From a bacterium (lineage in GTDB: Bacteria; Zhuqueibacterota; Zhuqueibacteria; Residuimicrobiales; Krinioviventaceae): a DNA stretch of 64,000 bases. Both the position numbers and the translations under genes were made by a program. Below are positions 41,594 through 55,569 of this stretch, in pieces (positions within the stretch are counted from its first letter, which is position 1; the number at the start of each line of letters is the position of its first letter). The notes beneath the pieces are model-generated. The model searched no databases, had not been told where the DNA came from, and was given only the letters and a program-made list of their open reading frames with translations. Where the stretch lies: assembly GCA_963693055.1 (NCBI GenBank), contig OY843751.1, positions 2,656,001 through 2,720,000 on the forward strand, in the 5' to 3' direction.

Positions 41594-43813
41594 ATGCGTT
41601 CATTAACAAGATTTATCCTGACAATCCTTTGTTTTTCTGCAATTTCTTCTGCACAAATTAATCCCGTTCAACTTGAACCGGCATTGATTTTCAACTCTGA
41701 TCGTTCTACGTATTTTAGCAGAACGATCTATTCTTTAGGTTCCCAGTTTTCATCTACAGATTCAATTTTTGCTTTGCAAAAAATTCAAAAATTTAATATA
41801 ACAAAAGTTGATTCCATAAATTCTCATGAATTACAGATTGATTTTGTTATAGAACCAGGATTTACTGAATTCGGCAGACATAAATTTGTAGTGTTGGATT
41901 CTTTGCAAAAGAAAAAACTGGATTTTACTCTGGATGTAAGGTATGCAAATTCCCCATTTGTCGAATCAATTTTGATCCGTCAGAATAAAAAAGTAATGAA
42001 CGACACTATACGTTTGTCAGATACAGACTATACGTTAGCAACGTTGACAATAAGAGGGACAGGTTTATTTGACAATACTATGATAGAGTTTGATGACCCT
42101 GCAATTCAGGTTTCAAATACACCGGGGTGGAGGAGAAGTATTGCCCCGAATTTATTACAAGTTGGACTGGAGATAAAAACCAGTAATATTAATGTTGGCT
42201 ATAAACAATTTAGAATAAAAAATGATTTTGCCATGGAAGGTTTTGGCAAGATTTTTATCAAAAGTAACAGATCGCCAATAATATATGGATCGGTTCCTGA
42301 TATCATTGCAGATGGTCAGGACCATCGTATACAAATACGTGGTGATTATTTTCAATCGGGACTAACAGCATTATTACTGCCTCAAGATGGTATAGCAAGA
42401 GTACAAAATCGTTCAACCAATGAAGTTGATCTATTGGTAAACATTCCTGTATTGGAAAATACAAAAAGTTATAAACTCGTTATTCAAAATCCTGATGGAT
42501 TATCTGATACTACCGGATATTTTACTGCAAAAACACCTCCCTTAAATAAAGCATACGCACGGTCATTGAATGATCAACCCGTATTTTTAGATAAAGAAAC
42601 CCGCATTGTTTTTACAGTTCAAACCTATGCAAACAAGCGGTTAAACAAACAAACTGCTTATGAAATTAATATTGATGGTGAAAAATTTACGGTTAATTCA
42701 GTAATAAATGACAGCACTTGTGAAGCTGTAATTAAATTATCTCAAAAATCACCTTACACTTTATTAAATCAGCATGTATTTACTATTAGTCCGGTGAATG
42801 CTGCTCCCAGGTGGAAAGGCTTGTTATTTAGCAAACCTGCTCCTGAACTCACCTACATGTCACCAGAAAATGTATTGCATCCTCAGGATACATTGAGTTT
42901 TGTGTTCAAAGGTAAAAATCTGGATGACATAATTATGTTTATAACTGACCCAGAGATCACATTTAAAATTCAGGAAAACAGGGGAGACCTGATTCGCGTA
43001 ACAGCAATAGCCGGGCGTCATTTAAAAAATGGTACATATCCTGTAAAAATTCGGAAAAATGATGTAACTTTTGAGTTCCCAGAGCATCAAATTAATATAC
43101 AACAGTGGCAACCATTTACTGAATATGCTTCAATCTATACAACTAGTTTAAATAGTCTGCCGCCCGATTCTTTATGGAAAGAAAAACAAAAAGCCCGGAT
43201 CATTGAAAAAACTGACAAATTACGCATGGATTTTTATTTGCAAAACTTGTCAAAAGATGCTGGCACCCAAAAAGTGTTTATTAACGCTGTATTGATCGAT
43301 TCTTCAAATGCTGTTCGAGCAGAAACACGCTTTTATAAAGCGTTGACCTATGAAAATAAAACTTTTTCCTGGAATTGGCGTTTACATGAAAAAATTAAAT
43401 CTGGTGATCGTATAGAGATCTCTATCAATAATACTGGTGGGCAAAACAAAAAGACAGAAGTGTTTTTTGTAAAACCTCACTGGTCAGAATCTTTTAAAGG
43501 ATCAACCTCATTTATAATTTTCAAGGCACCAATGAATGGAGGAAATGCTACAGCTGAAATTTTAAGAACCGTAGCAATTGGTCTTTCATATCAACCCTTT
43601 GAAAATAAAGACTTTTTGGAATTTGATTCTTCTGTATTGATTGGTAATGCAACATCAAGCGACAGTGATCTTGATGTTGATTTGGGTCTGGGTTTAAGTG
43701 TGATCTTGTGGAATCATATCCAAATTGGTATGGGTTCAAACCTGACCAATGGACCTTTTTCAGAAATGTTTGCTTTTATGGGTACACGTATAAAGATACC
43801 TGTTCCCTGGTAA
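41594..43813 (+). CDS. Large secreted beta-rich protein, IPT/TIG-like domains
   Basis: Signal peptide; repeated P..(S/P)....I.G..(F/L) modules; amphipathic C-terminal strands ending in W. Confidence 0.65.
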   Translation: MRSLTRFILTILCFSAISSAQINPVQLEPALIFNSDRSTYFSRTIYSLGSQFSSTDSIFALQKIQKFNITKVDSINSHELQIDFVIEPGFTEFGRHKFVVLDSLQKKKLDFTLDVRYANSPFVESILIRQNKKVMNDTIRLSDTDYTLATLTIRGTGLFDNTMIEFDDPAIQVSNTPGWRRSIAPNLLQVGLEIKTSNINVGYKQFRIKNDFAMEGFGKIFIKSNRSPIIYGSVPDIIADGQDHRIQIRGDYFQSGLTALLLPQDGIARVQNRSTNEVDLLVNIPVLENTKSYKLVIQNPDGLSDTTGYFTAKTPPLNKAYARSLNDQPVFLDKETRIVFTVQTYANKRLNKQTAYEINIDGEKFTVNSVINDSTCEAVIKLSQKSPYTLLNQHVFTISPVNAAPRWKGLLFSKPAPELTYMSPENVLHPQDTLSFVFKGKNLDDIIMFITDPEITFKIQENRGDLIRVTAIAGRHLKNGTYPVKIRKNDVTFEFPEHQINIQQWQPFTEYASIYTTSLNSLPPDSLWKEKQKARIIEKTDKLRMDFYLQNLSKDAGTQKVFINAVLIDSSNAVRAETRFYKALTYENKTFSWNWRLHEKIKSGDRIEISINNTGGQNKKTEVFFVKPHWSESFKGSTSFIIFKAPMNGGNATAEILRTVAIGLSYQPFENKDFLEFDSSVLIGNATSSDSDLDVDLGLGLSVILWNHIQIGMGSNLTNGPFSEMFAFMGTRIKIPVPW

Positions 43814-43833
43814 TTGTTAATGGAGATTTTAGT

Positions 43834-44073
43834 ATGAATTGTGATGATATTTTAAATCGAATATGTGACGACTTGTCTGAAGATATCAATTCTCAGGTTT
43901 GCAAGGATATTAAAAATCATTTAGAATCTTGTGAAAATTGTAATGCACAAATTAATTCTATGAAAAATGCTGTAAATTTATATAAATGCCTTGAGGAAAA
44001 AGAGGTACCGACTGTTGTTCATGAACGTTTGTTAAAAATGTTAAATTTAGAGAATTTACCACCCGCTAAATAA
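43834..44073 (+). CDS. Zinc-finger anti-sigma domain protein (zf-HC2)
   Basis: MNC...HLESCENC (HxxxCxxC); GGAG RBS before ATG 43834. Confidence 0.82.
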   Translation: MNCDDILNRICDDLSEDINSQVCKDIKNHLESCENCNAQINSMKNAVNLYKCLEEKEVPTVVHERLLKMLNLENLPPAK

Positions 44074-44074
44074 C

Positions 44075-45019
44075 CTAAATATTTAGCAAGATTGTTATTG
44101 TTGCAAAAAGTAATAATAATATAATAATTGCAAATCCTCTACCACTGAACAATCCTTTAATTATTCTATTTCTGGCATTGTTAACTGCTTTTCGCAGCGG
44201 CAACCAGAAATTTCTATCCATATACAAGAAGAATGATTTAATAAATACCTGTCCTGTATACATGAATTGTTGTAAAAAATGCTGTTGCGTATCTGCTCTT
44301 TTTTCCTGATGTTGATTAATCTCAACTGGCAATACCTTTTGCTCTTCAACTTTTAACTGTAGATCAAGATGATCCGGATCTAGTCTGTAATATGGAATAT
44401 ACATTTTTTTAGTTGTTTTGCCTTTTTCATAAACAGAACCTGGTTTTATTCCTTTATGAAATTTACCTTTCGCGTAAATTAATGAAATTATATCATTTAA
44501 ATAGGCTGTCATAACAGGATTATTTTTATCAACTAGTTCATTGATAAATTGTTGTTGTTGATCAAGTTGATCTATTGATATACTTTTTTCTTTACTGAAT
44601 GTATCAAATAGTCTTACTAGTTTGTTAATAGCTTTAAATAATTGATCGTCAAAATCAGTAAACGAGCCATCTTGTAATACAAAGGGGACCGACTCGAGTT
44701 CAATGTTGAAATTATAGTTTACAGAATTAGTATTTTCGGTATTAAACACTTGAGAGTTGATAATGAATGATAATTTTAAACCAATATTTTGATCAAATGT
44801 GTTTATATTTAAACTTGTGTTTAAAAATCGTATGCTTTTATTTGCCAGATCGCTATTTGTTGAATTGATATGCTGCTGAATTTTGGATGATAGCATATAA
44901 TCCTGTTTGAAATCAATTTTTATATTTTTATTGGGAAAATCATCCAGTGGTTTTTTATGTTTTCCTATGGATTTTAATTGTTCGTATTGTTCAATTTTGA
45001 ATCGATTAACCTTGGTCAT
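44075..45019 (-). CDS. Hypothetical protein with C-terminal TM anchor
   Basis: Long ORF; ATG 45019 after AGGA; hydrophobic C-terminus. Confidence 0.6.
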   Translation of the reverse strand: MTKVNRFKIEQYEQLKSIGKHKKPLDDFPNKNIKIDFKQDYMLSSKIQQHINSTNSDLANKSIRFLNTSLNINTFDQNIGLKLSFIINSQVFNTENTNSVNYNFNIELESVPFVLQDGSFTDFDDQLFKAINKLVRLFDTFSKEKSISIDQLDQQQQFINELVDKNNPVMTAYLNDIISLIYAKGKFHKGIKPGSVYEKGKTTKKMYIPYYRLDPDHLDLQLKVEEQKVLPVEINQHQEKRADTQQHFLQQFMYTGQVFIKSFFLYMDRNFWLPLRKAVNNARNRIIKGLFSGRGFAIIILLLLFATITILLNI

Positions 45020-45157
45020 AGAGTTTCCTGTTAAAAAATTATAAAAAGAAGTAAAATATAGATCATTTATCATTGCAAATTTCATCCCAAATACGTATAA
45101 TTCTAAATAAAAAAACATGTATTTTCAATTCCAATTATGTTACATTTGGGTGATGAA

Positions 45158-46327
45158 ATGTCTGAAAATGAAATCAAGATTGTAGAATTTTCCAATCAAA
45201 CCAAAAATGATAGACAATTATTAAAGCAATTTGTTAATTTCCATTGGTCTCATTACGAAAATGATCCTCAATATGTACCATTATTGGATTATGAATATTT
45301 GGGCTTTCGGTTAATTGGCATGACAGGTTTTTTTGAACCTGGCAATTTATTTTTCAAGCATGCGGAAATGCGTTTTTTCCTGGCTCAAAGAAATGGCGAA
45401 TGTGTTGGTCGTTGTAACGCTTTTGTTAATCACAGTTATAATGAACATTGGAATGAAAAGACAGGTTTTTGGGGACAATTTGAATCAATAGATGATCTTG
45501 ATGTTGCACGTGCTTTAACCGATGCTGCTGCAAGCTGGCTTGCACAGCAGGGTATGGATATGATGCGGGGACCTCAAAATTTACCCGTTAATGAAGCAAC
45601 ACCCGGCTTGTTAACTGAAGGCTTTGAAACACGTCCTGTCATTTATTATCAGTACAATAAACCCTATTATCAAAATCTAATCGAGCAGCTTGATTTTGAA
45701 CCAGCAAAGAAATTTTTATCATGGGAAGCACCTGTAACTCAAGGAGAAAAGCCCAAGCTTGAACGAGTCACTGAAAAGATAATGAAACGTTTTGATATTA
45801 AAGTTGAAACCTGGGATGAACGTCCATTTAAAACCCGACATCAAGAGATGTTTGATATTTATAATGACGCCTGGAGTGATAATTATAATTTTGTACCCTT
45901 TACGCAGGAAGAGTTTTTTTCCATAGTTAGTGATATGATGTTAGTAATGGATAAGAAACTATTTTTGTTTATTTATGTAAATAATGAACCCGCAGCGTTT
46001 TTTGGTGGGGTACCCAATATAAATGAGGTTATAAAACCCATACCCGGAATCAAAAGATGGGAATTGATTCGGGCAGTTAAAATGTTATTAACCAAACATA
46101 GAGTTAAAGGATTCAGGTTAGGGTATTTAGGAGTAAAGAAGAAATTCAGAAGAATGGGACTTGATGGTTTAATGTTGTGGAAGCAACATGCATATTCTAA
46201 ACAAGCTGGTTACGAGTATTCTGATTTAGGTTGGGTTTTAGAAGATAATGTAATGGTACATCGACTGATTGATCTTATAATTGCAAAACCATCAAAGGTT
46301 TATACAATTTATGAAAAGCAAATTTGA
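45158..46327 (+). CDS. GNAT-fold protein (YghO-like)
   Basis: Y.NDPQYVP.L, GFWGQFE, RGP, YNKPYY, LGV...FR.MG, WVLEDN. Confidence 0.8.
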   Translation: MSENEIKIVEFSNQTKNDRQLLKQFVNFHWSHYENDPQYVPLLDYEYLGFRLIGMTGFFEPGNLFFKHAEMRFFLAQRNGECVGRCNAFVNHSYNEHWNEKTGFWGQFESIDDLDVARALTDAAASWLAQQGMDMMRGPQNLPVNEATPGLLTEGFETRPVIYYQYNKPYYQNLIEQLDFEPAKKFLSWEAPVTQGEKPKLERVTEKIMKRFDIKVETWDERPFKTRHQEMFDIYNDAWSDNYNFVPFTQEEFFSIVSDMMLVMDKKLFLFIYVNNEPAAFFGGVPNINEVIKPIPGIKRWELIRAVKMLLTKHRVKGFRLGYLGVKKKFRRMGLDGLMLWKQHAYSKQAGYEYSDLGWVLEDNVMVHRLIDLIIAKPSKVYTIYEKQI

Positions 46328-46346
46328 AAATATTTAAGGAGTTGAT

Positions 46347-47303
46347 ATGTCTCTAGTGAATCGTCGTGATTTTATTAAAAAAAGTAGTATTGTTGCTAGC
46401 ACAACAGCAATGGGAGGATTAATTCAGGCTTGTTCTAAATCTGAAAAACCTGTTGTTGAAAGCTGGAACGGATTTAAACATGCTATGTGTAATGAAAGTA
46501 TGCAGGATTTGAGCTGGTCAGAACAGTGCAGCATTGTTGCAAATGCTGGTTACCAGGGAATAGAAGTTGCTCCCTTTACATTGGTTCAAAATGGTGTAGG
46601 TGATATTGACGCAAACGGTCGCAAAGAAATGAAAAAAGTTATGAATGATTTGGGACTTGAATGCGCAGGTTTACATTGGCTATTGGCCCCACCTCCCAAA
46701 GGATTGCATTTTACAACTCCGGATGCTAAACTCCGAGCCAAAACAGTAGATTATTTGAATCAGTTGATTGATTTTTGTGGTGATTTGGGTGGAACAGTCA
46801 TGATCTTTGGTTCTCCTAAACAAAGAAATACTCTGGGAATTTCAATTGATGAAGCTAAAAAATATTTTACTGAAAATTTGGCATCCGTTGCAGATCATGC
46901 ACAATCACGCGATGTGAAAATTTTAATAGAACCTCTTGATACCAGTCAAACAGATGTTATTAATGTTACTGCTGAAGCTGTTGAAATTATTAATAAAATT
47001 AATCATCCTGCAATCCAAACCATGTTTGATTTCCATAATACACCAAATGAAACAGAACCGTTTGATGTAATTGTTGATAAAAATTATCAATACATTAAAC
47101 ATGTTCACGTTCAGGAAATGGATGGTAAATATCTGGGCACTGGTGATGCAGTCGATTCTTTTGTAAAAGCCTTTCAGGTATTGAAAGATAAAAATTATGA
47201 CAAATGGGTGTCATTGGAAGTTTTTGATTTTACTCCAGGCGGAAAAACCATTGCCGAAAGCTCTATCAAGGTTTTGAAAGAAATCGAATCGAAACTTGTA
47301 TAA
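46347..47303 (+). CDS. Sugar phosphate isomerase/epimerase (ketose 3-epimerase-like TIM barrel) with Tat-like leader
   Basis: RRDFIK, IQAC; GSPKQR, IEPL, FDFHN, HVHVQE, SLEVFD. Confidence 0.88.
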   Translation: MSLVNRRDFIKKSSIVASTTAMGGLIQACSKSEKPVVESWNGFKHAMCNESMQDLSWSEQCSIVANAGYQGIEVAPFTLVQNGVGDIDANGRKEMKKVMNDLGLECAGLHWLLAPPPKGLHFTTPDAKLRAKTVDYLNQLIDFCGDLGGTVMIFGSPKQRNTLGISIDEAKKYFTENLASVADHAQSRDVKILIEPLDTSQTDVINVTAEAVEIINKINHPAIQTMFDFHNTPNETEPFDVIVDKNYQYIKHVHVQEMDGKYLGTGDAVDSFVKAFQVLKDKNYDKWVSLEVFDFTPGGKTIAESSIKVLKEIESKLV

Positions 47304-47310
47304 TTTTTCT

Positions 47311-47336
47311 AGGTGTTGATATCATCAACACCTTTT
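47311..47336 (+). terminator. Intrinsic terminator
   Basis: AGGTGTTGAT-ATC-ATCAACACCT-TTT. Confidence 0.7.
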
Positions 47337-47409
47337 AAAATTTAAAAAAAATGTTGCATAATTCATAAAAAATGATTTATTCATTCATGTTTTCACTACA
47401 TGAATTTAT

Positions 47410-49179
47410 TTGAAAGGAAATAAGCAGGTTTTGTTAACTAAACTTATCCATAATGGAATTATTGTTCCGGATCCCCCAAAATATCATGGTGTTACCTTAA
47501 AAGTCAAAGATCAACAAATTAAACTTTCCCCCAAACAGGAAGAAATGGCGTATGCCTGGGCAAAAAAGCAAGGAACACCTTATGTAGAAGATCTTGTTTT
47601 TGTTAAAAATTTTCTCAAAGATTTTAGTCTTGCCCTTGGATTTAAAAAAGCACTAAAACTCGATGAAATTGATTTTACACCTGTTAATAAAATTGTTGAA
47701 AAAGAGCGTATAGCTCGTGAGGCCATGAGCAAGGAAGATAAAAAACTGCTTGCAGCAAAACGTAAAGAGATTCGTGAAGAGTTGAAAGAGAAATATGGTT
47801 TTGCTTCAACTGGTGATGAGAGAATAGAACTTGCGAATTATTTAACAGAGCCCAGTGGAATTTTTATGGGTAGGGGTAAGCATCCATTACGTGGAAGATG
47901 GAAAGAAGGTGCCGCTCAAAAAGATGTAACTTTAAATCTGAGTCCAGATGCCCCCGTTCCACCCGGAGATTGGAAGGAAATTGTTTGGCAGCCTGATTCT
48001 TTATGGGTAGCACGATGGGATGACAAGCTGTCAGGAAAACTTAAATACATCTGGCTTCACGATACTGCTCCTATCAAACAGGCTCGTGAAGCAAAGAAAT
48101 TTGATAAAGCTCTTGAATTAAATTCACGCATTGAACAAGTTAGAAAATCTCTGGAAAAAGATTTACAAAGCGATGAATTCAAGGTCCGTAAAGTTGCAAC
48201 CGCATGTTTTCTGATCGATGCATTATGTCTTCGTGTTGGTGATGAAAAAGATCCTGAAGAAGCCGATACCGTAGGTGCTACAACTTTACGCCCTGAACAT
48301 ATTAAATTCCTCAAAGATGGTCGCGTAGAGTTTCGTTTTTTGGGTAAAGACTCTGTATTATGGGATAAAAAGATAGAGCTACCGGATTTTGTTAAAGATA
48401 ATTTGAAAGAATTGTCTGAAAAAGCCAGACCCTCGACAAATAGTTTTGGTAAAGTCAAGCATGAAGCATATAATAAACCGCAATTGTTTCCAGATATTAC
48501 CAGCCGTAATGTTAATGCTTATTTATCAAATCATATGAAAGGTTTGACTGCCAAGGTTTTTCGTACACACCATGCTACCAATGTTGTTAAAACTTCATTA
48601 AATAATTCTAATGTTGTGAAAACTGATCCTGAATATGTTAAATGGGAAGCAACAGTTAACGCAAACCTTGAAGCTGCAATTTTATGTAATCATACAAAGC
48701 AGCCACCCAAAAATTGGGCAGAGCGCAAAGTTAAATTTAGAGAACGTGAAAAGAGTGCCAAGGAAAGAATTGAAAATATAAAAGCTTTGATCAAAACTTT
48801 AAAGCAAGAAATTAAAGATCTTAAAGTAGAATATAAAGAAAAGAAAGAAGCTGCCCCTAATAAAGCTCAGCGAAAAAAAGTTAAAGAACGTTACGATAAA
48901 AAAATTCAGGCTAAAAAGAACAGGCTGGAAACTACCATACAAAGAGAAGAGAAAGCACAAATATCAATAGGAAAACTACGTGCACAAAAAGCCATAGCTT
49001 CTCAAAACAGAACATGGAACCTGGGTACTAGCCAAAAATCATATATTGATCCTAGAGTATTTCACGAATGGGGAAAATCTGTTGATTATGATGTTATAGG
49101 AAAATACTATTCAGCAACACTACAACGCAAGTTTATGTGGGTTAAAGAGCAGGATAACGATGAAAATGAAACTGCTTGA
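47410..49179 (+). CDS. DNA topoisomerase IB, eukaryotic/archaeal long form
   Basis: HNG, EPSGIFMGRGKHP, LRVGDEK, ADTVG, FLGKDS, LTAKVFRT, AILCNH, coiled-coil linker, LGTSQKSYIDPR. Confidence 0.95.
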   Translation: MKGNKQVLLTKLIHNGIIVPDPPKYHGVTLKVKDQQIKLSPKQEEMAYAWAKKQGTPYVEDLVFVKNFLKDFSLALGFKKALKLDEIDFTPVNKIVEKERIAREAMSKEDKKLLAAKRKEIREELKEKYGFASTGDERIELANYLTEPSGIFMGRGKHPLRGRWKEGAAQKDVTLNLSPDAPVPPGDWKEIVWQPDSLWVARWDDKLSGKLKYIWLHDTAPIKQAREAKKFDKALELNSRIEQVRKSLEKDLQSDEFKVRKVATACFLIDALCLRVGDEKDPEEADTVGATTLRPEHIKFLKDGRVEFRFLGKDSVLWDKKIELPDFVKDNLKELSEKARPSTNSFGKVKHEAYNKPQLFPDITSRNVNAYLSNHMKGLTAKVFRTHHATNVVKTSLNNSNVVKTDPEYVKWEATVNANLEAAILCNHTKQPPKNWAERKVKFREREKSAKERIENIKALIKTLKQEIKDLKVEYKEKKEAAPNKAQRKKVKERYDKKIQAKKNRLETTIQREEKAQISIGKLRAQKAIASQNRTWNLGTSQKSYIDPRVFHEWGKSVDYDVIGKYYSATLQRKFMWVKEQDNDENETA

Positions 49180-49275
49180 TTAATTAATTATTTTATTGTA
49201 ATTTTTTATAACATTAATTTATCCAATTTGGCTTTGTGGAGCAATTAATACTCATCAATTTATTATAATTTATGG

Positions 49276-49992
49276 ATGGAATCCATGCCTGATGAAAGAA
49301 TTTTGCGTTTATTAAAATTTGTTCCTCTTTTTTCTAAACTCAGTGAATCTGAATTAATTCAAATTTCAGATCAGTGTGTAAAAAAAGAGTGTCAAAAAGA
49401 CCAGGTCCTGTTTGTTGAAGAAGAATCCGGTCAAACATTATTTATTATTCTCAAAGGAACTGTAAAAATTACCCGAACAAGTGATGAGGGTAAAGAGGTT
49501 ATTTTAACGATATTAAAATCAGGCGACTTTTTTGGTGAATTATCTTTACTTGATGGTAAAGGTCGCTCAGCTACAGTAATTGCTATGGCTGAAACAGAGT
49601 TGTTGCTGTTACGAAGAAGCGAATTTTTATTAATTATTGAAAAATTTCCACACATAGCTTCTGAATTGCTCAAAGTGCTTGCTGACAGAATTAGAAAATG
49701 TGATGTTCAGATTGAAAACCTGACGCTTCAGGATGCTGTAGGGAGAGTTGGTGCTACATTAATACATGTTGCTGAACAGACCGGTTATAAACGGGGCAAA
49801 AGCATGGTTATTCCCAAATTACCTGTTCAGCAAGACCTGGCAAACATGGCAGGCACAGCGCGGGAAACTATATCAAGAGTTATGGCCCTTTTTGAGCAAG
49901 ACGAACTGTTTGTGAGAGAAGGAGGACATAGAGTTGTTTTCCCGGATTTTGAAAGATTTAAATCCGATTATTGGTCAGCAAGCAAGGATTGA
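49276..49992 (+). CDS. Crp/Fnr family regulator
   Basis: FFGELSLLDGKGRSATV cNMP cassette; HTH LANMAGTARETISR. Confidence 0.94.
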   Translation: MESMPDERILRLLKFVPLFSKLSESELIQISDQCVKKECQKDQVLFVEEESGQTLFIILKGTVKITRTSDEGKEVILTILKSGDFFGELSLLDGKGRSATVIAMAETELLLLRRSEFLLIIEKFPHIASELLKVLADRIRKCDVQIENLTLQDAVGRVGATLIHVAEQTGYKRGKSMVIPKLPVQQDLANMAGTARETISRVMALFEQDELFVREGGHRVVFPDFERFKSDYWSASKD

Positions 49993-50000
49993 TTTTGGTG

Positions 50001-50510
50001 ATGCAGAATTTAGAAATTAAAGCCAAATACAATGATCTGCAACATGCTGAAAAAGTAGCAATACAAATTAATGCAGTCAAGAAATGGACAAGAATACAAA
50101 AAGATATTTATTTTGTAACGCCTAATGGCAAGTTGAAACTTCGCGTTGTTGATAGCGCAGCTTGCGATTTAATTTATTACAACAGACCAGATAATAAAAA
50201 AGCTGAAATTAGTAATTATAAAATATATAAAACGCAAAAACCACATGAACTGCTTGAAATCCTGACTGAATTTTTTTCACTTGATATTACTGTTGAAAAA
50301 ACACGAACATTGTATATTTTTAAAAATGTACGAATACATCTTGATTCTGTTAATCAACTTGGATCTTTTATAGAATTTGAAGCTGTTTTAGATGAAAAAA
50401 ATGATTTGAATGTTTCCTCAGATCATTTGGATTTTTTAAGTGAAAAATTTAACATCAGTGATAATCAATTAGTAAATACTGGTTATTTTGAATTATTGAA
50501 AAACAATTAA
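50001..50510 (+). CDS. CYTH domain protein (class IV adenylate cyclase, CyaB-like)
   Basis: NLEIKA, Q.D.YF, LKLR, VEKTR, IHLD.V..LG.F.EFE. Confidence 0.88.
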   Translation: MQNLEIKAKYNDLQHAEKVAIQINAVKKWTRIQKDIYFVTPNGKLKLRVVDSAACDLIYYNRPDNKKAEISNYKIYKTQKPHELLEILTEFFSLDITVEKTRTLYIFKNVRIHLDSVNQLGSFIEFEAVLDEKNDLNVSSDHLDFLSEKFNISDNQLVNTGYFELLKNN

Positions 50511-50525
50511 TATTTTGGAGCGAGT

Positions 50526-51473
50526 GTGTACGGAAATTTAAAGGTGTTTTCTGGTAATAGTAACCCTCAATTAGCAAAAGATATTTGTGAAAATATTGGA
50601 ATTGAACCTGGTAAAATTAGAATTCATAAATTCAGTAATGAGAACATTAAAGTCAAAATTGAAGAAAATGTTAGAAATGATGACGTATATGTACTTCAAA
50701 GTGCATCAAAACCCTTAAACGAACACTTTATGGAATTGTTGATCATTCTTGATGCATTAAAATATGCTTCCGCCAGAAGAATAACTGTTGTGACTCCGTA
50801 CTATTTTTATGCACGTTCTGACAAAAAAGATGAACCCAGAATTTCAATTACTGCAAGATTGGTTGCTGAATTACTCAAAGCTGCCGGTGCCGATAGAATT
50901 ATTACCATGGAATTGCATGCACCTCAGATTATGGGTTTTTCACGTATACCTATGGATCAGCTTTTACCAACACAAATATTACTCAATCATTACCATCAAA
51001 AAGACCTTTCTAATGCTGTGATTGCAGCTACTGACGTAGGAGGCGCTAAGGCTGCCAGAAAATTTGCCAGACAACTTGGTCTGCCTATGGTAGTGATGGA
51101 TAAAGAACGAATTGGAGATAAAGAAAAAGTTATTATTAATAATATTATTGGTGATGCTAAAAACAAGGATGTTTTAATTATTGATGATGAAATTCTGTCC
51201 GGTGGTTCAGTGCTTGAAGCTGTAAAATTTCTTAAGGAGCATGGTGCAAATCGTATTTGGGCTGGCTGTACGCATGGGTTTATGACATCAAAAGTTTTAG
51301 ATAAATTTCAAGCATCAGAGGTTGAAGAGCTGGTAACAACCAATACTGTACCTCAACTTCTTTCTGAAAAACATACAAAAGTTAAAGTATTGTCTGTTGC
51401 GGAATTGTTTGCAAAGGCTATCACTGCTATTCATATTGGAGATTCCGTCGGTGCTTTGTTCAGTGACTCGTGA
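50526..51473 (+). CDS. prs: Ribose-phosphate pyrophosphokinase (divergent)
   Basis: FSG.SN..LA, SARRITVV.PY..YARSDKK, LHAPQI.GF, IIDDEILSGGS. Confidence 0.92.
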   Translation: MYGNLKVFSGNSNPQLAKDICENIGIEPGKIRIHKFSNENIKVKIEENVRNDDVYVLQSASKPLNEHFMELLIILDALKYASARRITVVTPYYFYARSDKKDEPRISITARLVAELLKAAGADRIITMELHAPQIMGFSRIPMDQLLPTQILLNHYHQKDLSNAVIAATDVGGAKAARKFARQLGLPMVVMDKERIGDKEKVIINNIIGDAKNKDVLIIDDEILSGGSVLEAVKFLKEHGANRIWAGCTHGFMTSKVLDKFQASEVEELVTTNTVPQLLSEKHTKVKVLSVAELFAKAITAIHIGDSVGALFSDS

Positions 51474-51481
51474 GAATGTGA

Positions 51482-52111
51482 ATGAATAATAACTTTGAAA
51501 TTATATTTTTTGACCTGGGAAACGTACTTGTTAATGTAAATATTGAAATGTTTTTTGCAAACCTTGCAATAATGACTGGTAGTTGCATGATGGATGTGTA
51601 TGCAGTAGCAGATTCACATGCCGACACTATTGAGCAGTTTAACAAGGGTTTAATCTCTGCTAACCAATTTTATAATACGGTTACTTCTAGTTATAATAAT
51701 ATTACTTTTGAACAATTTTCTGATGCATATACAGATATATTTACATTAAATGCGCCTATTGTTCCTGTGGTTAATCTATTGCAAAAGTCTGAAAAATTGT
51801 CTATTATTAGTAATACAGATATATTGCATTTTGAATACATCAAAAAGAAATTTAATTTTATCAATAATTTTGAAAATCCAATTACTTCGTACGAGGTTCA
51901 TTCTTTAAAGCCAGAGCCAGAAATATATTTAAATGCAATGAACCAATTTAAAATGCAACCAAAGCATTGTATTTTTATTGACGACAAGAAAGAGAATATT
52001 ACCGCTGCCAATGATCTGGGTATGACAGGTATACATTTTACCGGTGTAAACAGACTTGTTGACTCGTTAATTGATTTAGGATTCACAAACTTGAAAACCC
52101 TGGAGGTTTAA
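51482..52111 (+). CDS. HAD-family phosphatase
   Basis: FFDLGNVL, ISNT, KPEPEIY, FIDDK.EN. Confidence 0.9.
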   Translation: MNNNFEIIFFDLGNVLVNVNIEMFFANLAIMTGSCMMDVYAVADSHADTIEQFNKGLISANQFYNTVTSSYNNITFEQFSDAYTDIFTLNAPIVPVVNLLQKSEKLSIISNTDILHFEYIKKKFNFINNFENPITSYEVHSLKPEPEIYLNAMNQFKMQPKHCIFIDDKKENITAANDLGMTGIHFTGVNRLVDSLIDLGFTNLKTLEV

Positions 52112-53338
52112 ATGTCAGTTTTGGCAATAAATGGTGGAACGCCTGTAAGAACAGATTCATTTCCTGTTTGGCCGGTTTGGGGTGAAGAAGAGATTAATAA
52201 TGTTACCAATGTTATAAAAAGCGGGAAATGGGGTTGTTTGAATGGAACAATTACATCCGAATTTGAAAAAAAATATGCATCCTATATGAATGCAAAACAT
52301 GGTATTTGTGTGAACAGTGGTACAACTGCTTTGCAAATAGCACTCAAAGCTGCTGATGTAGATGCCGGATCAGAAGTATTGGTACCAGCTTATACGTTTA
52401 TAGCAACCGCAACAGCGGTAGTAGAGATGGGATGTATTCCCATTTTTGTTGATATTGATCCACAAACTTACAACATGGATGCTGATAAAGCTGAACAAGC
52501 CATAACAGACAAAACCGCAGCCATTATGCCTGTACATTTTGCAGGCTGTCCTGCTGATATGGATAAAATTTTGGCACTCGCCAAAAAACATAACCTAAAA
52601 GTTGTTGAAGATGCAGCCCAGGCATGGGGATCTGAATGGAAAGGTCAACGTGTTGGCGCATTAGGAGACGCGGGTTGTTTTAGCTTTCAATCATCAAAAA
52701 ATATCAATTCTGGTGAAGGTGGTATTATTATAACCAACGATGATGAAGTAGCCAAAATGTCAAGATCACATATCAACTGTGGTAGAAGTGAAGATGGCCT
52801 TTGGTATGAGCATTTTTATTTCGGTGGTAATTACCGTATTACAGACCTCCAATCTGCAGTATTGATGGCCCAACTCGAGCGATACGATGAGCTAATGGCA
52901 ATTCGTAAAGAAAATTTTCAATATCTTTCAGATGCATTAAAAGATATTGAGGGTATTGAGCCTTTAACAATTGACGAACGTGTTACATCAAATTCTTGCC
53001 ATTTGTTTATTTTTAAATATAAAAAAGAGCATTTTAATAATGCATCCAAATCATCTTTTATTGATGCTTTGCGTAAAGAAGGAATCTATACAAGTCCTGG
53101 TTATTCATTACCTTTGTATAAACAACCTGTTTTTATTAATAAGGCTTTTGGACCCAGAGGAAAATCAATTGATTTACCAGTTGATTACAACTCTTTTTCA
53201 TGTCCTGAAACAGAAAAAGCATGTTATGAAGAAGCTATTTGGTTCACACAAAATATGTTTTTAGGCGATCAGAATGATATGGATGATATTGTAGAGGCAA
53301 TATCAAAAATTGCTGAGAATAAATCTGAACTGAATTAA
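52112..53338 (+). CDS. DegT/DnrJ/EryC1/StrS PLP aminotransferase
   Basis: NSGTTAL, YTFIATA, EDAAQA, FSFQSSKN..SGEGG, GNYR. Confidence 0.93.
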   Translation: MSVLAINGGTPVRTDSFPVWPVWGEEEINNVTNVIKSGKWGCLNGTITSEFEKKYASYMNAKHGICVNSGTTALQIALKAADVDAGSEVLVPAYTFIATATAVVEMGCIPIFVDIDPQTYNMDADKAEQAITDKTAAIMPVHFAGCPADMDKILALAKKHNLKVVEDAAQAWGSEWKGQRVGALGDAGCFSFQSSKNINSGEGGIIITNDDEVAKMSRSHINCGRSEDGLWYEHFYFGGNYRITDLQSAVLMAQLERYDELMAIRKENFQYLSDALKDIEGIEPLTIDERVTSNSCHLFIFKYKKEHFNNASKSSFIDALRKEGIYTSPGYSLPLYKQPVFINKAFGPRGKSIDLPVDYNSFSCPETEKACYEEAIWFTQNMFLGDQNDMDDIVEAISKIAENKSELN

Positions 53339-53348
53339 GGGGGTATTT

Positions 53349-53657
53349 TTGTTATCGGTTTGCAGGATGTGTGGCCAGCGATCTTTGCGGCCAAAGGACC
53401 TGTTGAGAAATCCGTTTAATGTTACATTCATCTGTCATTATTGTGGTGCAGAATATAAAGTATCAAAAAATTTTTTTCACTATATACTTGTAATTTTAAT
53501 ATGGATTCTAACATTTGTTGCTTTTATTGTATTAACAATTTTCAATTTTGATGGAATATTTAAGCTGGTTTTGAGTTTTATAATATTAATAATTTCATTT
53601 ACCATTTCTGTGATGATTGGGAATTTGGATAAAATTAGTCGTTTAAGAAAAAAGTAG
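53349..53657 (+). CDS. Small Zn-ribbon membrane protein (CxxC...CxxC, 2 TM)
   Basis: CRMCG...CHYCG then two hydrophobic helices; AAGGGGG RBS before TTG. Confidence 0.6.
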   Translation: MLSVCRMCGQRSLRPKDLLRNPFNVTFICHYCGAEYKVSKNFFHYILVILIWILTFVAFIVLTIFNFDGIFKLVLSFIILIISFTISVMIGNLDKISRLRKK

Positions 53658-53661
53658 AATT

Positions 53662-54027
53662 ATGTTCAAGCTTACCGTTCATTCTTCGTTTTCTGCAGCT
53701 CATCGTCTTGTTGATTATTCAGGCGCTTGTCAGAGAATCCATGGTCATAATTGGAAAGTCAGGGCAACAATAGCTTCTGATCAATTAGATGACCTGGGAA
53801 TGGTGATGGATTTATATGAACTTGAAACCATATTAAACTCAACTTTGAAGAAATTTGATCATTATATTATTAATGATATTGAACCATTTACGGAGATTAA
53901 TCCAACTTCTGAAAATTTGGCTAAATTTATATATTATGATATAAAAAAACAATTATCAGCACCTATAAAAATGGTACAGGTTGAACTTTTAGAAACCGAT
54001 GATTTCTCTGTAACATTTGCTGAATAA
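53662..54027 (+). CDS. queD: 6-carboxy-5,6,7,8-tetrahydropterin synthase
   Basis: FSAAHRL, C..IHGHNW, DH, PTSENLA, ET. Confidence 0.93.
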   Translation: MFKLTVHSSFSAAHRLVDYSGACQRIHGHNWKVRATIASDQLDDLGMVMDLYELETILNSTLKKFDHYIINDIEPFTEINPTSENLAKFIYYDIKKQLSAPIKMVQVELLETDDFSVTFAE

Positions 54028-54048
54028 CTAAAAAAGATTAAATATTTC

Positions 54049-54076
54049 TTGACTATTGTTGTTTAAATGATATATT
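54049..54076 (+). promoter_or_regulatory. Sigma-70-type promoter of aro operon
   Basis: TTGACT-N16-TATATT with TG extension. Confidence 0.55.
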
Positions 54077-54121
54077 TAAATACTCTATAGCGGAAGAATA
54101 TAAATTGAGAAAAACCTGAAT

Positions 54122-54190
54122 ATGCAATTTTATTTTGAAAATTATTATTATTTTTTTATCGCCTTTGTAGCGGGAGGGATTAGCGTGTAA
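54122..54190 (+). CDS. Phe/Tyr-rich attenuator leader peptide MQFYFENYYYFFIAFVAGGISV
   Basis: 5 Phe + 4 Tyr in first 15 codons; lies between promoter and attenuator hairpins. Confidence 0.85.
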   Translation: MQFYFENYYYFFIAFVAGGISV

Positions 54191-54251
54191 ATGGATTTTT
54201 TTTTCTAGCTAACCCCACCCACTGCTTTCACAAAGTAGTGGGTTTTTTTTT
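54167..54251 (+). terminator. Attenuator: terminator with overlapping antiterminator
   Basis: Terminator 54217-54228/54232-54243 plus T-run; antiterminator 54167-54184 pairs with 54208-54225. Confidence 0.85.
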
Positions 54252-54268
54252 ATGTATAAGGATATGAA

Positions 54269-54526
54269 ATGGAATTGTCAGAACTTCGAAAAGAAATTGA
54301 TTTAATTGATGAAGAAATTTTGAATTTGCTTTCTAAACGTGCCAATGTTGCTATTGATATTGGTGATTTTAAAAGTAAAAACAATCTTGAAATTTTTAAT
54401 AAAGACCGGGAAGATAAAATTTTTGAAAATTTGATTAATAAAAATAATGGTCCGCTAAGTGATAACGCTGTTCGGGCTATATTTGAACAAATCATTGTAA
54501 TCTGCAGAGATTTACAAAAGCTCTGA
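54269..54526 (+). CDS. Monofunctional chorismate mutase (AroQ class)
   Basis: LSELRKEID.ID.EIL.LLSKR, IG..K, RE. Confidence 0.93.
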   Translation: MELSELRKEIDLIDEEILNLLSKRANVAIDIGDFKSKNNLEIFNKDREDKIFENLINKNNGPLSDNAVRAIFEQIIVICRDLQKL

Positions 54527-54552
54527 TAATTATTTATTGAAAGGACAGTATT

Positions 54553-55569
54553 TTGGTAATTGTCATGAAAGATAGTGCGTCAGATGAAATGATTGCAATT
54601 GTATCTGACAAACTTGTTGAGCTTGGTTTTGACGTTCACAAAGTTGTGGGTGTTAACAAGACCATAATAGGTGCAATAGGTGATAAACGCGGTATAGATA
54701 TAAGACAATTTGAAATAATGGAAGGCGTTCAGGAAGTTGTTCGCATTACTGAACCTTATAAACTTGCAGGACGTACATTTCATCAGGAAAATTCAGTTGT
54801 TAAAGTTAAGGAAACATCTTTTGGTGGTGACGAAATACATGTAATTGCTGGTCCTTGCTCTATTGAAAGTGAAGATCAATTATTTACAATTGCTGAATTG
54901 GTTAAAAAAGCCGGGGCCACAGTACTTCGTGGTGGTGCTTTTAAACCACGTACATCTCCTTATAGCTTTCAGGGAATGGGAAAAGAAGGTTTACAATTGC
55001 TACAAAAAGCCGGAAAAGAATATAATTTACCCACTGTCTCTGAGATTATGCGTGAAAATCAGGTTGATTTAATGTGTGAATATGTCGACATTCTTCAAGT
55101 GGGCGCTCGGAATATGCAAAATTTTTCACTTTTAAAAGAACTTGGAAAAACTAAAACACCAATATTACTAAAGCGTGGTCTTGCTGCAACAATTGAAGAA
55201 TTTTTGATGGCAGCAGAATATATTATGGCTGGTGGAAATTATAATGTAATCTTGTGTGAACGTGGTATTCGTACTTTTGAAAATTATACCCGAAATACAT
55301 TAGATATTTCTGCTATACCTGTCGTCCACAAGTTGAGTCATTTACCTATTATTGCCGATCCCAGTCATGGAACTGGTATTCGTGATAAAGTACCTCCAAT
55401 GGCAAGAGCAGCTATTGCGGCCGGTGCTGATGGCTTGACCATTGAAGTACATCATGAACCTGAAAAAGCCTTCTCTGATGGTGCTCAGTCATTGTATCCT
55501 AAACAATTTGAACGGTTAATGGAAGAGCTTCGAATGATTGCATGGGCTATAGGTCGTAAAATTAAATAG
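54553..55569 (+). CDS. aroF: DAHP synthase type I-beta with N-terminal regulatory domain
   Basis: AGPCSIE, KPRTSPYSFQG, GARNMQN, KRG, CERGIRTFE, DPSH. Confidence 0.97.
   Translation: MVIVMKDSASDEMIAIVSDKLVELGFDVHKVVGVNKTIIGAIGDKRGIDIRQFEIMEGVQEVVRITEPYKLAGRTFHQENSVVKVKETSFGGDEIHVIAGPCSIESEDQLFTIAELVKKAGATVLRGGAFKPRTSPYSFQGMGKEGLQLLQKAGKEYNLPTVSEIMRENQVDLMCEYVDILQVGARNMQNFSLLKELGKTKTPILLKRGLAATIEEFLMAAEYIMAGGNYNVILCERGIRTFENYTRNTLDISAIPVVHKLSHLPIIADPSHGTGIRDKVPPMARAAIAAGADGLTIEVHHEPEKAFSDGAQSLYPKQFERLMEELRMIAWAIGRKIK

Follow-up and report, generated by a model that had tools for sequence, protein, structure and literature searches.

The window, by which we mean the whole 64,000-nt stretch of DNA analyzed, carries on its forward strand a gene for a long-form type IB topoisomerase (TopIB) at 47431..49179, with a probable product of 582 aa read from a TTG codon at 47431. 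The longest open reading frame runs from a TTG at 47410 to 49179 on the same strand, and residues are numbered by this 589-aa frame throughout. A sequence-only reading had given the protein as 589 aa. The frame is open over all 589 codons, but the start was probably placed too early, because a congener (G001) has TCG in place of the TTG at 47410, whereas the TTG at 47431, 21 nt downstream, is conserved there with an AAGGA upstream of it. The resulting length of 582 aa is also that of P0002. The AAGGA (47414..47418, forward strand) lies 12 nt before TTG 47431 and is a possible ribosome-binding site. A promoter scan returned 10 sites against 7.1 ± 2.6 expected by chance and was uninformative. 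Eight of eight motifs listed by the sequence-only reading were found in the translated frame.

Three Pfam domains follow one another in the order of the long form, each above its gathering score. The cap/DNA-binding domain PF02919 (Topoisom_I_N; aa 11–216, 47440..48057, E 4e-49; 167.5 bits vs a cut-off of 25) stands before the catalytic core PF01028 (aa 221–458, 48070..48783, E 1e-59), and PF14370 forms the C-terminal domain (aa 520–584, 48967..49161, E 4e-14). The core contains R275 (48232), K313 (48346), R385 (48562), and H428 (48691), and the C-terminal domain contains the catalytic Tyr545 (49042–49044) directly after Ser544 (49039–49041), which occupies the human N722 position. All of these features are on the forward strand. 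R275/K313/R385/H428/Y545 align with human R488/K532/R590/H632/Y723 (1rrj alignment, chain position + 200), so the R-K-R-H-Y pentad is intact, as had been read from the sequence. The five residues were invariant in 33 complete and one truncated KSB1 sequences and in 8/8 Chloroflexota sequences. In the AlphaFold model (mean pLDDT 91, alignment of 52 rows) the long linker noted earlier takes the form of two long predicted helices, one of 46 aa and the other of 48 aa (48715..49005, forward strand; pLDDT ~88–97). It is Lys-rich with a net charge of +19. The His-to-Tyr spacing that measures it was 117 here, 115–117 across 33 KSB1 sequences, 91 in human TOP1, and 164–210 in Asgard archaea, within a range of 56–210 among archaeal and eukaryotic TopIBs.

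Solved relatives ranked by E value were led by 6z01 (1.5e-137), the Caldiarchaeum enzyme (PMC8748870), followed by human TOP1 (~1e-68) and the Deinococcus short TopIB 2f4q (1.8e-4). Foldseek with the predicted model matched 6z03 (E 7e-46) and human 1rrj (TM 0.77), with short TopIBs at TM ≤0.31. The overall clamp fold of the model was TOP1-like, at TM 0.74–0.77 to the five best human chains. Pfam and the model thus confirmed the cap, core, linker, and C-terminal domain of a full-length enzyme, and the domain content, the E value of 1.8e-4, and the TM of ≤0.31 set it apart from the short bacterial TopIBs. We regard its identity as a long-form, eukaryote/archaea-type TopIB as virtually certain. 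Some bacterial copies carry C-terminal extensions of 120–220 aa, for totals of 708–802 aa (L019, L063, P0122; L033/L144, L146); the extended KSB1 copies may be read-through or assembly errors.

The neighbors are ordinary bacterial genes. Upstream lies a gene for a xylose-isomerase-like TIM barrel (46347..47303, forward strand) and downstream one for a Crp/Fnr regulator (49276..49992, forward strand). Both also adjoin the TopIB gene in G001 and G017, and elsewhere in the host order the TIM-barrel gene does not. No tRNA genes or Rfam families were found in the window. The long TopIB had no match in the phage database, viral contigs searched with a single query gave no match, and plasmids matched only to short TopIBs. 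We rejected carriage by a mobile element on these results, which agree with the earlier description of bacterial flanks free of mobile-element signs. A functional link to the Crp/CYTH/TIM-barrel neighbors was likewise rejected, since, of the 25 distinct order loci left once duplicates were removed, only those of G001 and G017 had the arrangement. At 18 of these 25 loci (families f1, f2, and f4) TopIB had a divergent response-regulator/tsaE/tsaB-like cluster beside and upstream of it, with gene names assigned by eye from the sequences. In the present genome (G000) that cluster is ~0.95 Mb from TopIB; this distance, and present neighbors common to G001 and G017 only, indicate that the TopIB gene moved in the G000/G001/G017 lineage.

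Two other features of the surroundings are recorded here. The Crp/Fnr gene overlaps that of a CYTH protein scoring just below the class IV adenylate cyclase cut-off (window 49276–50510), and the two are a possible cAMP sensor and source pair. ORFs at 41594–43813 (forward, 739 aa) and 44075–45118 (reverse, 347 aa) had no Pfam match and were kept in G001 (92% and 85%).

Substitution patterns indicate that the TopIB gene is under purifying selection. Values of dN/dS were 0.042–0.108 in 6/6 pairs, resembling those of adjacent genes, and 0.03–0.08 per domain, linker included. Codon bias was at the genome median. The GC3 of 0.24 was at the 4th percentile of the genome, yet equal to that of adjacent genes (0.20–0.28), and so the low value is regional. 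With codon bias at the median and GC3 low across the region, we rejected a recent transfer. The AT shift extended over the whole of 41594–55569, where the ten genes measured had GC3 of 0.20–0.28 vs a genome median of 0.36. Families f1, f2, and f4 each formed a clade in the TopIB tree (90/91, 100/96, and 100/99).

Our bacterial survey covered the KSB1 phylum, which is Zhuqueibacterota (PMC11683472), and Chloroflexota. Within KSB1, PF02919 was present in 43/167 genomes, comprising 39/43 of the host order, 4/4 of family f6 of another order, and 0/120 of the rest. A further order member, G022, had a C-terminal piece of TopIB at a contig end. Close homologues (61–71% identity) were labeled 'candidate division KSB1', which points to KSB1 as the phylum of the host. 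Among Chloroflexota, 4/401 sampled genomes carried the long form, one of the four being the sample's centre. The gene was near-core locally (21/23 genomes of one family and 3/4 of one order), both groups having been picked because one member already had it. TopIB is an order-wide core gene and not a one-off, and the overlooked bacterial clade suspected from the sequence exists. In archaea we found the long form in 72/101 Bathyarchaeia and 43/61 Nitrososphaeria, and proteins labeled Heimdall-, Thor-, Loki-, and Sifarchaeal were recovered in one search seeded with P0127. One short query detected no short TopIB in the 167 KSB1 genomes, and replacement of an earlier short TopIB was set aside on that result. 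Four records have labels at odds with their sequences. L025 (Aenigmatarchaeota-labeled) and L028 (a 0.5-Mb archaeal genome) carry a Bathyarchaeia-type TopIB, through transfer or mis-binning, and P0284 (Zixibacteria label) and P0307 (Bathyarchaeia label) are 66–68% identical to a Heimdall-labeled TopIB, through mis-binning or a second transfer.

Besides TopIB, G000 had one GyrA-family gene and two type IA genes; no Topo VI A and no short TopIB were found. One type IA gene encodes an intact E. coli-like TopA of 880 aa (L059:550-3192, reverse strand; PF08272 and PF21372; order copies L167–L173 and L175). It scored 811 bits on 1ecl vs 435 for the native f6 TopA, had all nine motif residues in 9/9 loci examined, and formed its own clade, which suggests that the order's TopA was replaced at its base from a gammaproteobacterium-like donor. 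The other is a degenerate native topA flanked by smg (DUF494) and xerC (G000:C1:4370048-4372231, L060:943-3126, reverse strand; order copies L187–L214). Its catalytic Arg was absent at 25/25 order loci and its Tyr at 19/25 (kept in 6), the 25 being those left of 30 loci returned after five were excluded as fragments, a marginal match, or a long TopA. Intact TopA copies retained all nine motif residues in 21/21. The degenerate protein has shrunk to ~480 aa in family f2 and retains the C-terminal zinc ribbons, its dN/dS of 0.11 and 0.21 points to purifying selection, and the eight copies tested branched, on long branches, among native KSB1 TopAs. It is likely a conserved topoisomerase IA pseudoenzyme. 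The order thus appears, from its gene content, to have replaced TopA, kept a likely pseudoenzyme, and held TopIB. Carriers and most non-carriers alike had one GyrA-family gene and no Topo VI. Compensation for a missing Topo IV or VI was rejected since type II content failed to separate carriers from non-carriers, and no physiological need stood out from this comparison. Family f14 (G139–G147) departs from the remainder of the phylum in that six of its genomes carry, besides the usual one, a divergent GyrA/ParC-family gene of ~860 aa.

Trees were built with linker columns left out. FastTree was run on 265 rows (135 labeled, plus 130/150 representatives with enough coverage), and IQ-TREE (LG+C20 PMSF) on a 67-row subset agreed with it. 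Bacterial long TopIBs formed one clade (100/99). Bacteria, Asgard archaea, and P0124 formed one group (100/99; 100/97 in a 37-row tree) inside a Bathyarchaeia-containing group (99/99). AU tests, on groupings that were both defined after the tree was inspected, rejected a clade of bacteria and eukaryotes (p 3e-6) and one of bacteria and core Bathyarchaeia (p 0.011; seven rows left free). Of the eight eukaryote-type rows, three had a eukaryotic name or source, and the other five were classed by their motifs and their place in the tree. The eukaryote/archaea affinity read from the sequence is corrected to this extent, that the nearest relatives are Asgard archaeal and not eukaryotic. The nearest outside sequence, P0124, is encoded next to a two-domain gelsolin (2DGel) gene, and two PDB rows for this gelsolin name Loki- and Heimdallarchaeota. 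We take 2DGel gelsolin to be an Asgard marker, and the host of P0124 is on that basis likely an Asgard archaeon. In the 37-row tree bacteria grouped with P0124, P0341, and P0326 (91/85), and Asgard monophyly was AU-compatible (p 0.28). The placement of family f6 shifted, from with Chloroflexota in the 67-row tree to basal in the 37-row tree. Eukaryotic TOP1 was nearer Nitrososphaeria than Asgard, and the nearest kin of the Asgard enzymes were bacterial.

Rooting with short TopIBs gave results that depended on the sample. With six short TopIBs (243 columns) the root fell among bacterial long forms, with archaea and eukaryotes together at 95/92, and a root on the eukaryote branch was not rejected (p 0.098). 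A second set contained nine short TopIBs and five additional viral long forms and omitted ten rows (two compositional outliers among them). Its root fell at the Nitrososphaeria/eukaryote side; in this set, forcing short and bacterial forms together gave an lnL 1.46 higher than the free tree (p 0.61). The outgroup branch measured 4.5–5.4 changes per column (~245 columns), and the outgroup rows and two Chloroflexota rows were compositional outliers. Short TopIBs cannot fix the root, and the direction from archaeon to bacterium rests on distribution. We favor this direction because the long form is widespread across three archaeal groups and has a narrow range in bacteria. The root (Asgard+bacteria)|(Bathyarchaeia+Nitrososphaeria) also agrees with the archaeal species tree. 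We consider it quite probable that the gene passed from an archaeon to a bacterium, and the source was likely an Asgard-related archaeon, long ago. The old inter-domain transfer proposed by the sequence-only reading is the most likely history, although the trees alone leave its direction unsettled. A single entry into bacteria would have come first; the gene would then have passed between KSB1 and Anaerolineae lineages before being inherited vertically, and it relocated to the present site in the G000/G001/G017 lineage. Anaerolineae are reported to co-occur with Lokiarchaeota and to be transfer partners of theirs (PMC13247210).

Among characterized enzymes the best match in both sequence and fold was Caldiarchaeum subterraneum TOP1 (CsTOP1; PDB 6Z01/6Z03; PMC4824112, PMC8748870), with ~45% identity to Caldarchaeum orthologues. 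Both have the cap, core, linker, and C-terminal domains and the pentad, and both lack a long disordered N-terminus. Unlike CsTOP1, our enzyme has a bacterial host with gyrase, belongs to a separate clade, and has a short core insertion around aa 340–357 and Ser in place of Asn before the catalytic Tyr. Its linker is much longer than in Nitrososphaeria (His-to-Tyr 117 vs 63–71 in 24/38 Nitrososphaeria rows). Ser directly preceded the catalytic Tyr in all complete bacterial copies, 19/19 Asgard, and 31/34 Bathyarchaeia sequences, and Asn did so in 38/38 Nitrososphaeria and 8/8 eukaryote-type rows. Asgard TopIBs (Heimdall-, Thor-, Loki-, and Sif-labeled) were the sister or enclosing group in every tree without short outgroups and share with the bacterial enzymes this Ser and a Met at the human R362 position (19/19). 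Their linkers are longer still (164–210 vs 115–117), and they have been noted as long-linkered (PMC8748870); we found no biochemical study of an Asgard TopIB in the literature. Relative to human TOP1 the pentad and the F361/G363/R364/D533 positions are conserved, and the closed-clamp model superposes at TM 0.77. The bacterial enzyme lacks the 200-residue human N-terminal region and has a longer linker (117 vs 91) and a natural Ser at N722. Since human N722S is active and camptothecin-resistant (PMC9481636), we predict that the bacterial enzyme is camptothecin-resistant as well. The short bacterial/poxvirus-type TopIBs (Deinococcus 2F4Q/3M4A) share the core chemistry R-K-R-(H/N)-Y. They are ~320–370 aa, with a small N-terminal domain instead of the PF02919 cap and no linker, compared with 582 aa and both elements here; the cap is described as the domain missing from short bacterial and viral TopIBs (PMC4824112).

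By analogy with its family (PMC4824112, PMC8748870), the cap and core would close around duplex DNA and Tyr545 would nick one strand to form a 3'-phosphotyrosine. The DNA would then swivel, with the basic linker damping rotation, before the nick was resealed, and supercoils of both signs would be removed without ATP. The predicted role is a housekeeping one, in which the enzyme would work alongside gyrase and TopA to relax the supercoils that transcription and replication generate. TopA acts on negative supercoils alone, and TopIB would be the sole ATP-free remover of positive supercoils in G000. We judge that the enzyme is, with good probability, such a housekeeping relaxase, and we do not expect the chemistry itself to be new. 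A long TopIB with this role that entered bacteria from an archaeon is the best explanation overall and, taken as a whole, a reasonably probable one.

Several other accounts of the gene's origin were weighed against this one. An assembly or binning artefact, with archaeal DNA inside a bacterial genome, has practically no probability left and is already refuted. All carriers do seem to be metagenome-assembled, and the three runs compared with the window come from one sample, possibly the source sample. However, G000 is one 6.5-Mb contig (100% complete, 1.26% contamination, one bacterial 16S match), one contig in each of the three runs spans 44000–52625 without a joint, and other species have the gene flanked by the same bacterial genes, with a match in 39/41 relatives. 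A contig chimeric at the gene's borders, which the sequence-only reading had named as grounds for refutation, is thus contradicted. It is very improbable that a eukaryote or giant virus was the direct donor. Giant-virus contigs do carry long TopIBs (67 loci, 29–40% identity), and a few viral copies branched near Bathyarchaeia, Asgard, and bacteria, so that a viral shuttle is possible in principle. But the AU test rejected the clade of bacteria and eukaryotes, 0/15 placed viral copies (of 68 fetched) joined or adjoined the bacterial clade, and neither the phage nor the plasmid searches returned a long form. The reverse history is unlikely: here a short bacterial TopIB gave rise to the long one, which reached Asgard and other archaea and later eukaryotes, leaving the KSB1/Anaerolineae clade as the earliest branch. 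It draws on the root among bacterial long forms in the six-short-TopIB tree, on the second set, where the forced short+bacteria tree was no worse than the unconstrained one, and on the residue before the catalytic Tyr. This position varies among short TopIBs (S, C, A, or N), some of which share the Ser of all bacterial and Asgard long forms, with Asn instead in Nitrososphaeria and eukaryotes. Against it stand the length of the outgroup branch over so few columns, its compositional outliers, a root that shifted once sampling was altered, the narrow bacterial distribution, and the 167 KSB1 genomes in which one query found no short TopIB. Similarly doubtful is a joint reading by which the cap-and-linker TopIB originated in bacteria and entered archaea by way of Asgard, and its arrival in this order belonged to a wholesale type I topoisomerase refit that turned the native TopA into a conserved pseudoenzyme. 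If it were true, KSB1/Anaerolineae bacteria would be the link missing from the ancestry of eukaryotic TOP1.

Two further alternatives concern what the enzyme does. Displacement of the native TopA by TopIB, with later decay of the former, seems rather improbable. The topA beside xerC has lost its catalytic Arg (25/25) and mostly its Tyr (19/25) and sits as a long-branched set within the native KSB1 TopAs. This would fit such a functional replacement, and one has been proposed for archaea, where some Thaumarchaeota lack type IA enzymes (PMC4824112). The intact E. coli-like TopA of the order is nevertheless the simpler account of the decay. Family f6 has TopIB together with an intact native TopA, and among the Chloroflexota carriers a whole type IA match was present in 4/5, with the fifth frameshifted. 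Because these carriers keep ordinary type IA genes, TopIB is no simple substitute for TopA. It is still less probable that the enzyme is active but retained for a different task, for example processing nicks during repair or bridging nucleoid DNA via the long basic linker. The linker is longer than in human TOP1, near-constant in 33 KSB1 sequences, and under purifying selection, and gyrase and TopA already handle basic supercoiling. But no conserved repair or chromosome gene lies nearby, and as linkers vary from 56 to 210 in archaea and eukaryotes, length alone signals no new job. Relief of supercoils as a housekeeping function is the reading we retain.

Some viral TopIBs deserve separate mention. 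Many giant-virus contigs (GVMAG and others; L260–L325) carry a long TopIB, and 11 placed copies lay beside the eukaryotic enzymes; in the papers examined viral TopIB is described as short, unlike these. On four IMG/VR contigs of 58–156 kb (L259, L267, L270, and L292) the long TopIBs lay near Bathyarchaeia, Asgard, and bacteria, apart from the giant-virus and eukaryotic ones, and the neighbors of TopIB include ribonucleotide reductase. These four are possibly prokaryotic viruses with an archaeal-type TopIB.

In the accessible text of PMC4824112 the long form occurs among prokaryotes only in Thaumarchaeota, and there and in that of PMC8748870 bacterial TopIB is treated as short and the long form is presented as a hallmark of some archaea. 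The portion of PMC8185306 available to us makes no mention of a bacterial long form, and the word 'topoisomerase' is absent from the main text of PMC11683472 and PMC13247210. Databases already name the bacterial long TopIBs 'DNA topoisomerase I'. Our search of the openly searchable literature found no description of one, and so no paper documenting the long form in this phylum, a prospect the sequence-only reading had raised. The bacterial sequences form a clade of a known enzyme family, and this clade is apparently undescribed in print. A fixed and selected bacterial clade breaks the rule that bacteria have only short TopIB. An information-processing enzyme would here have crossed domains and become core in gyrase-bearing cells. 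The clade also bears on the open origin of TopIB, with eukaryotic TOP1 near Nitrososphaeria and the Asgard enzymes near bacteria, and for mechanism work it supplies a long TOP1 from bacteria that has an extended linker and naturally carries the N722S change.
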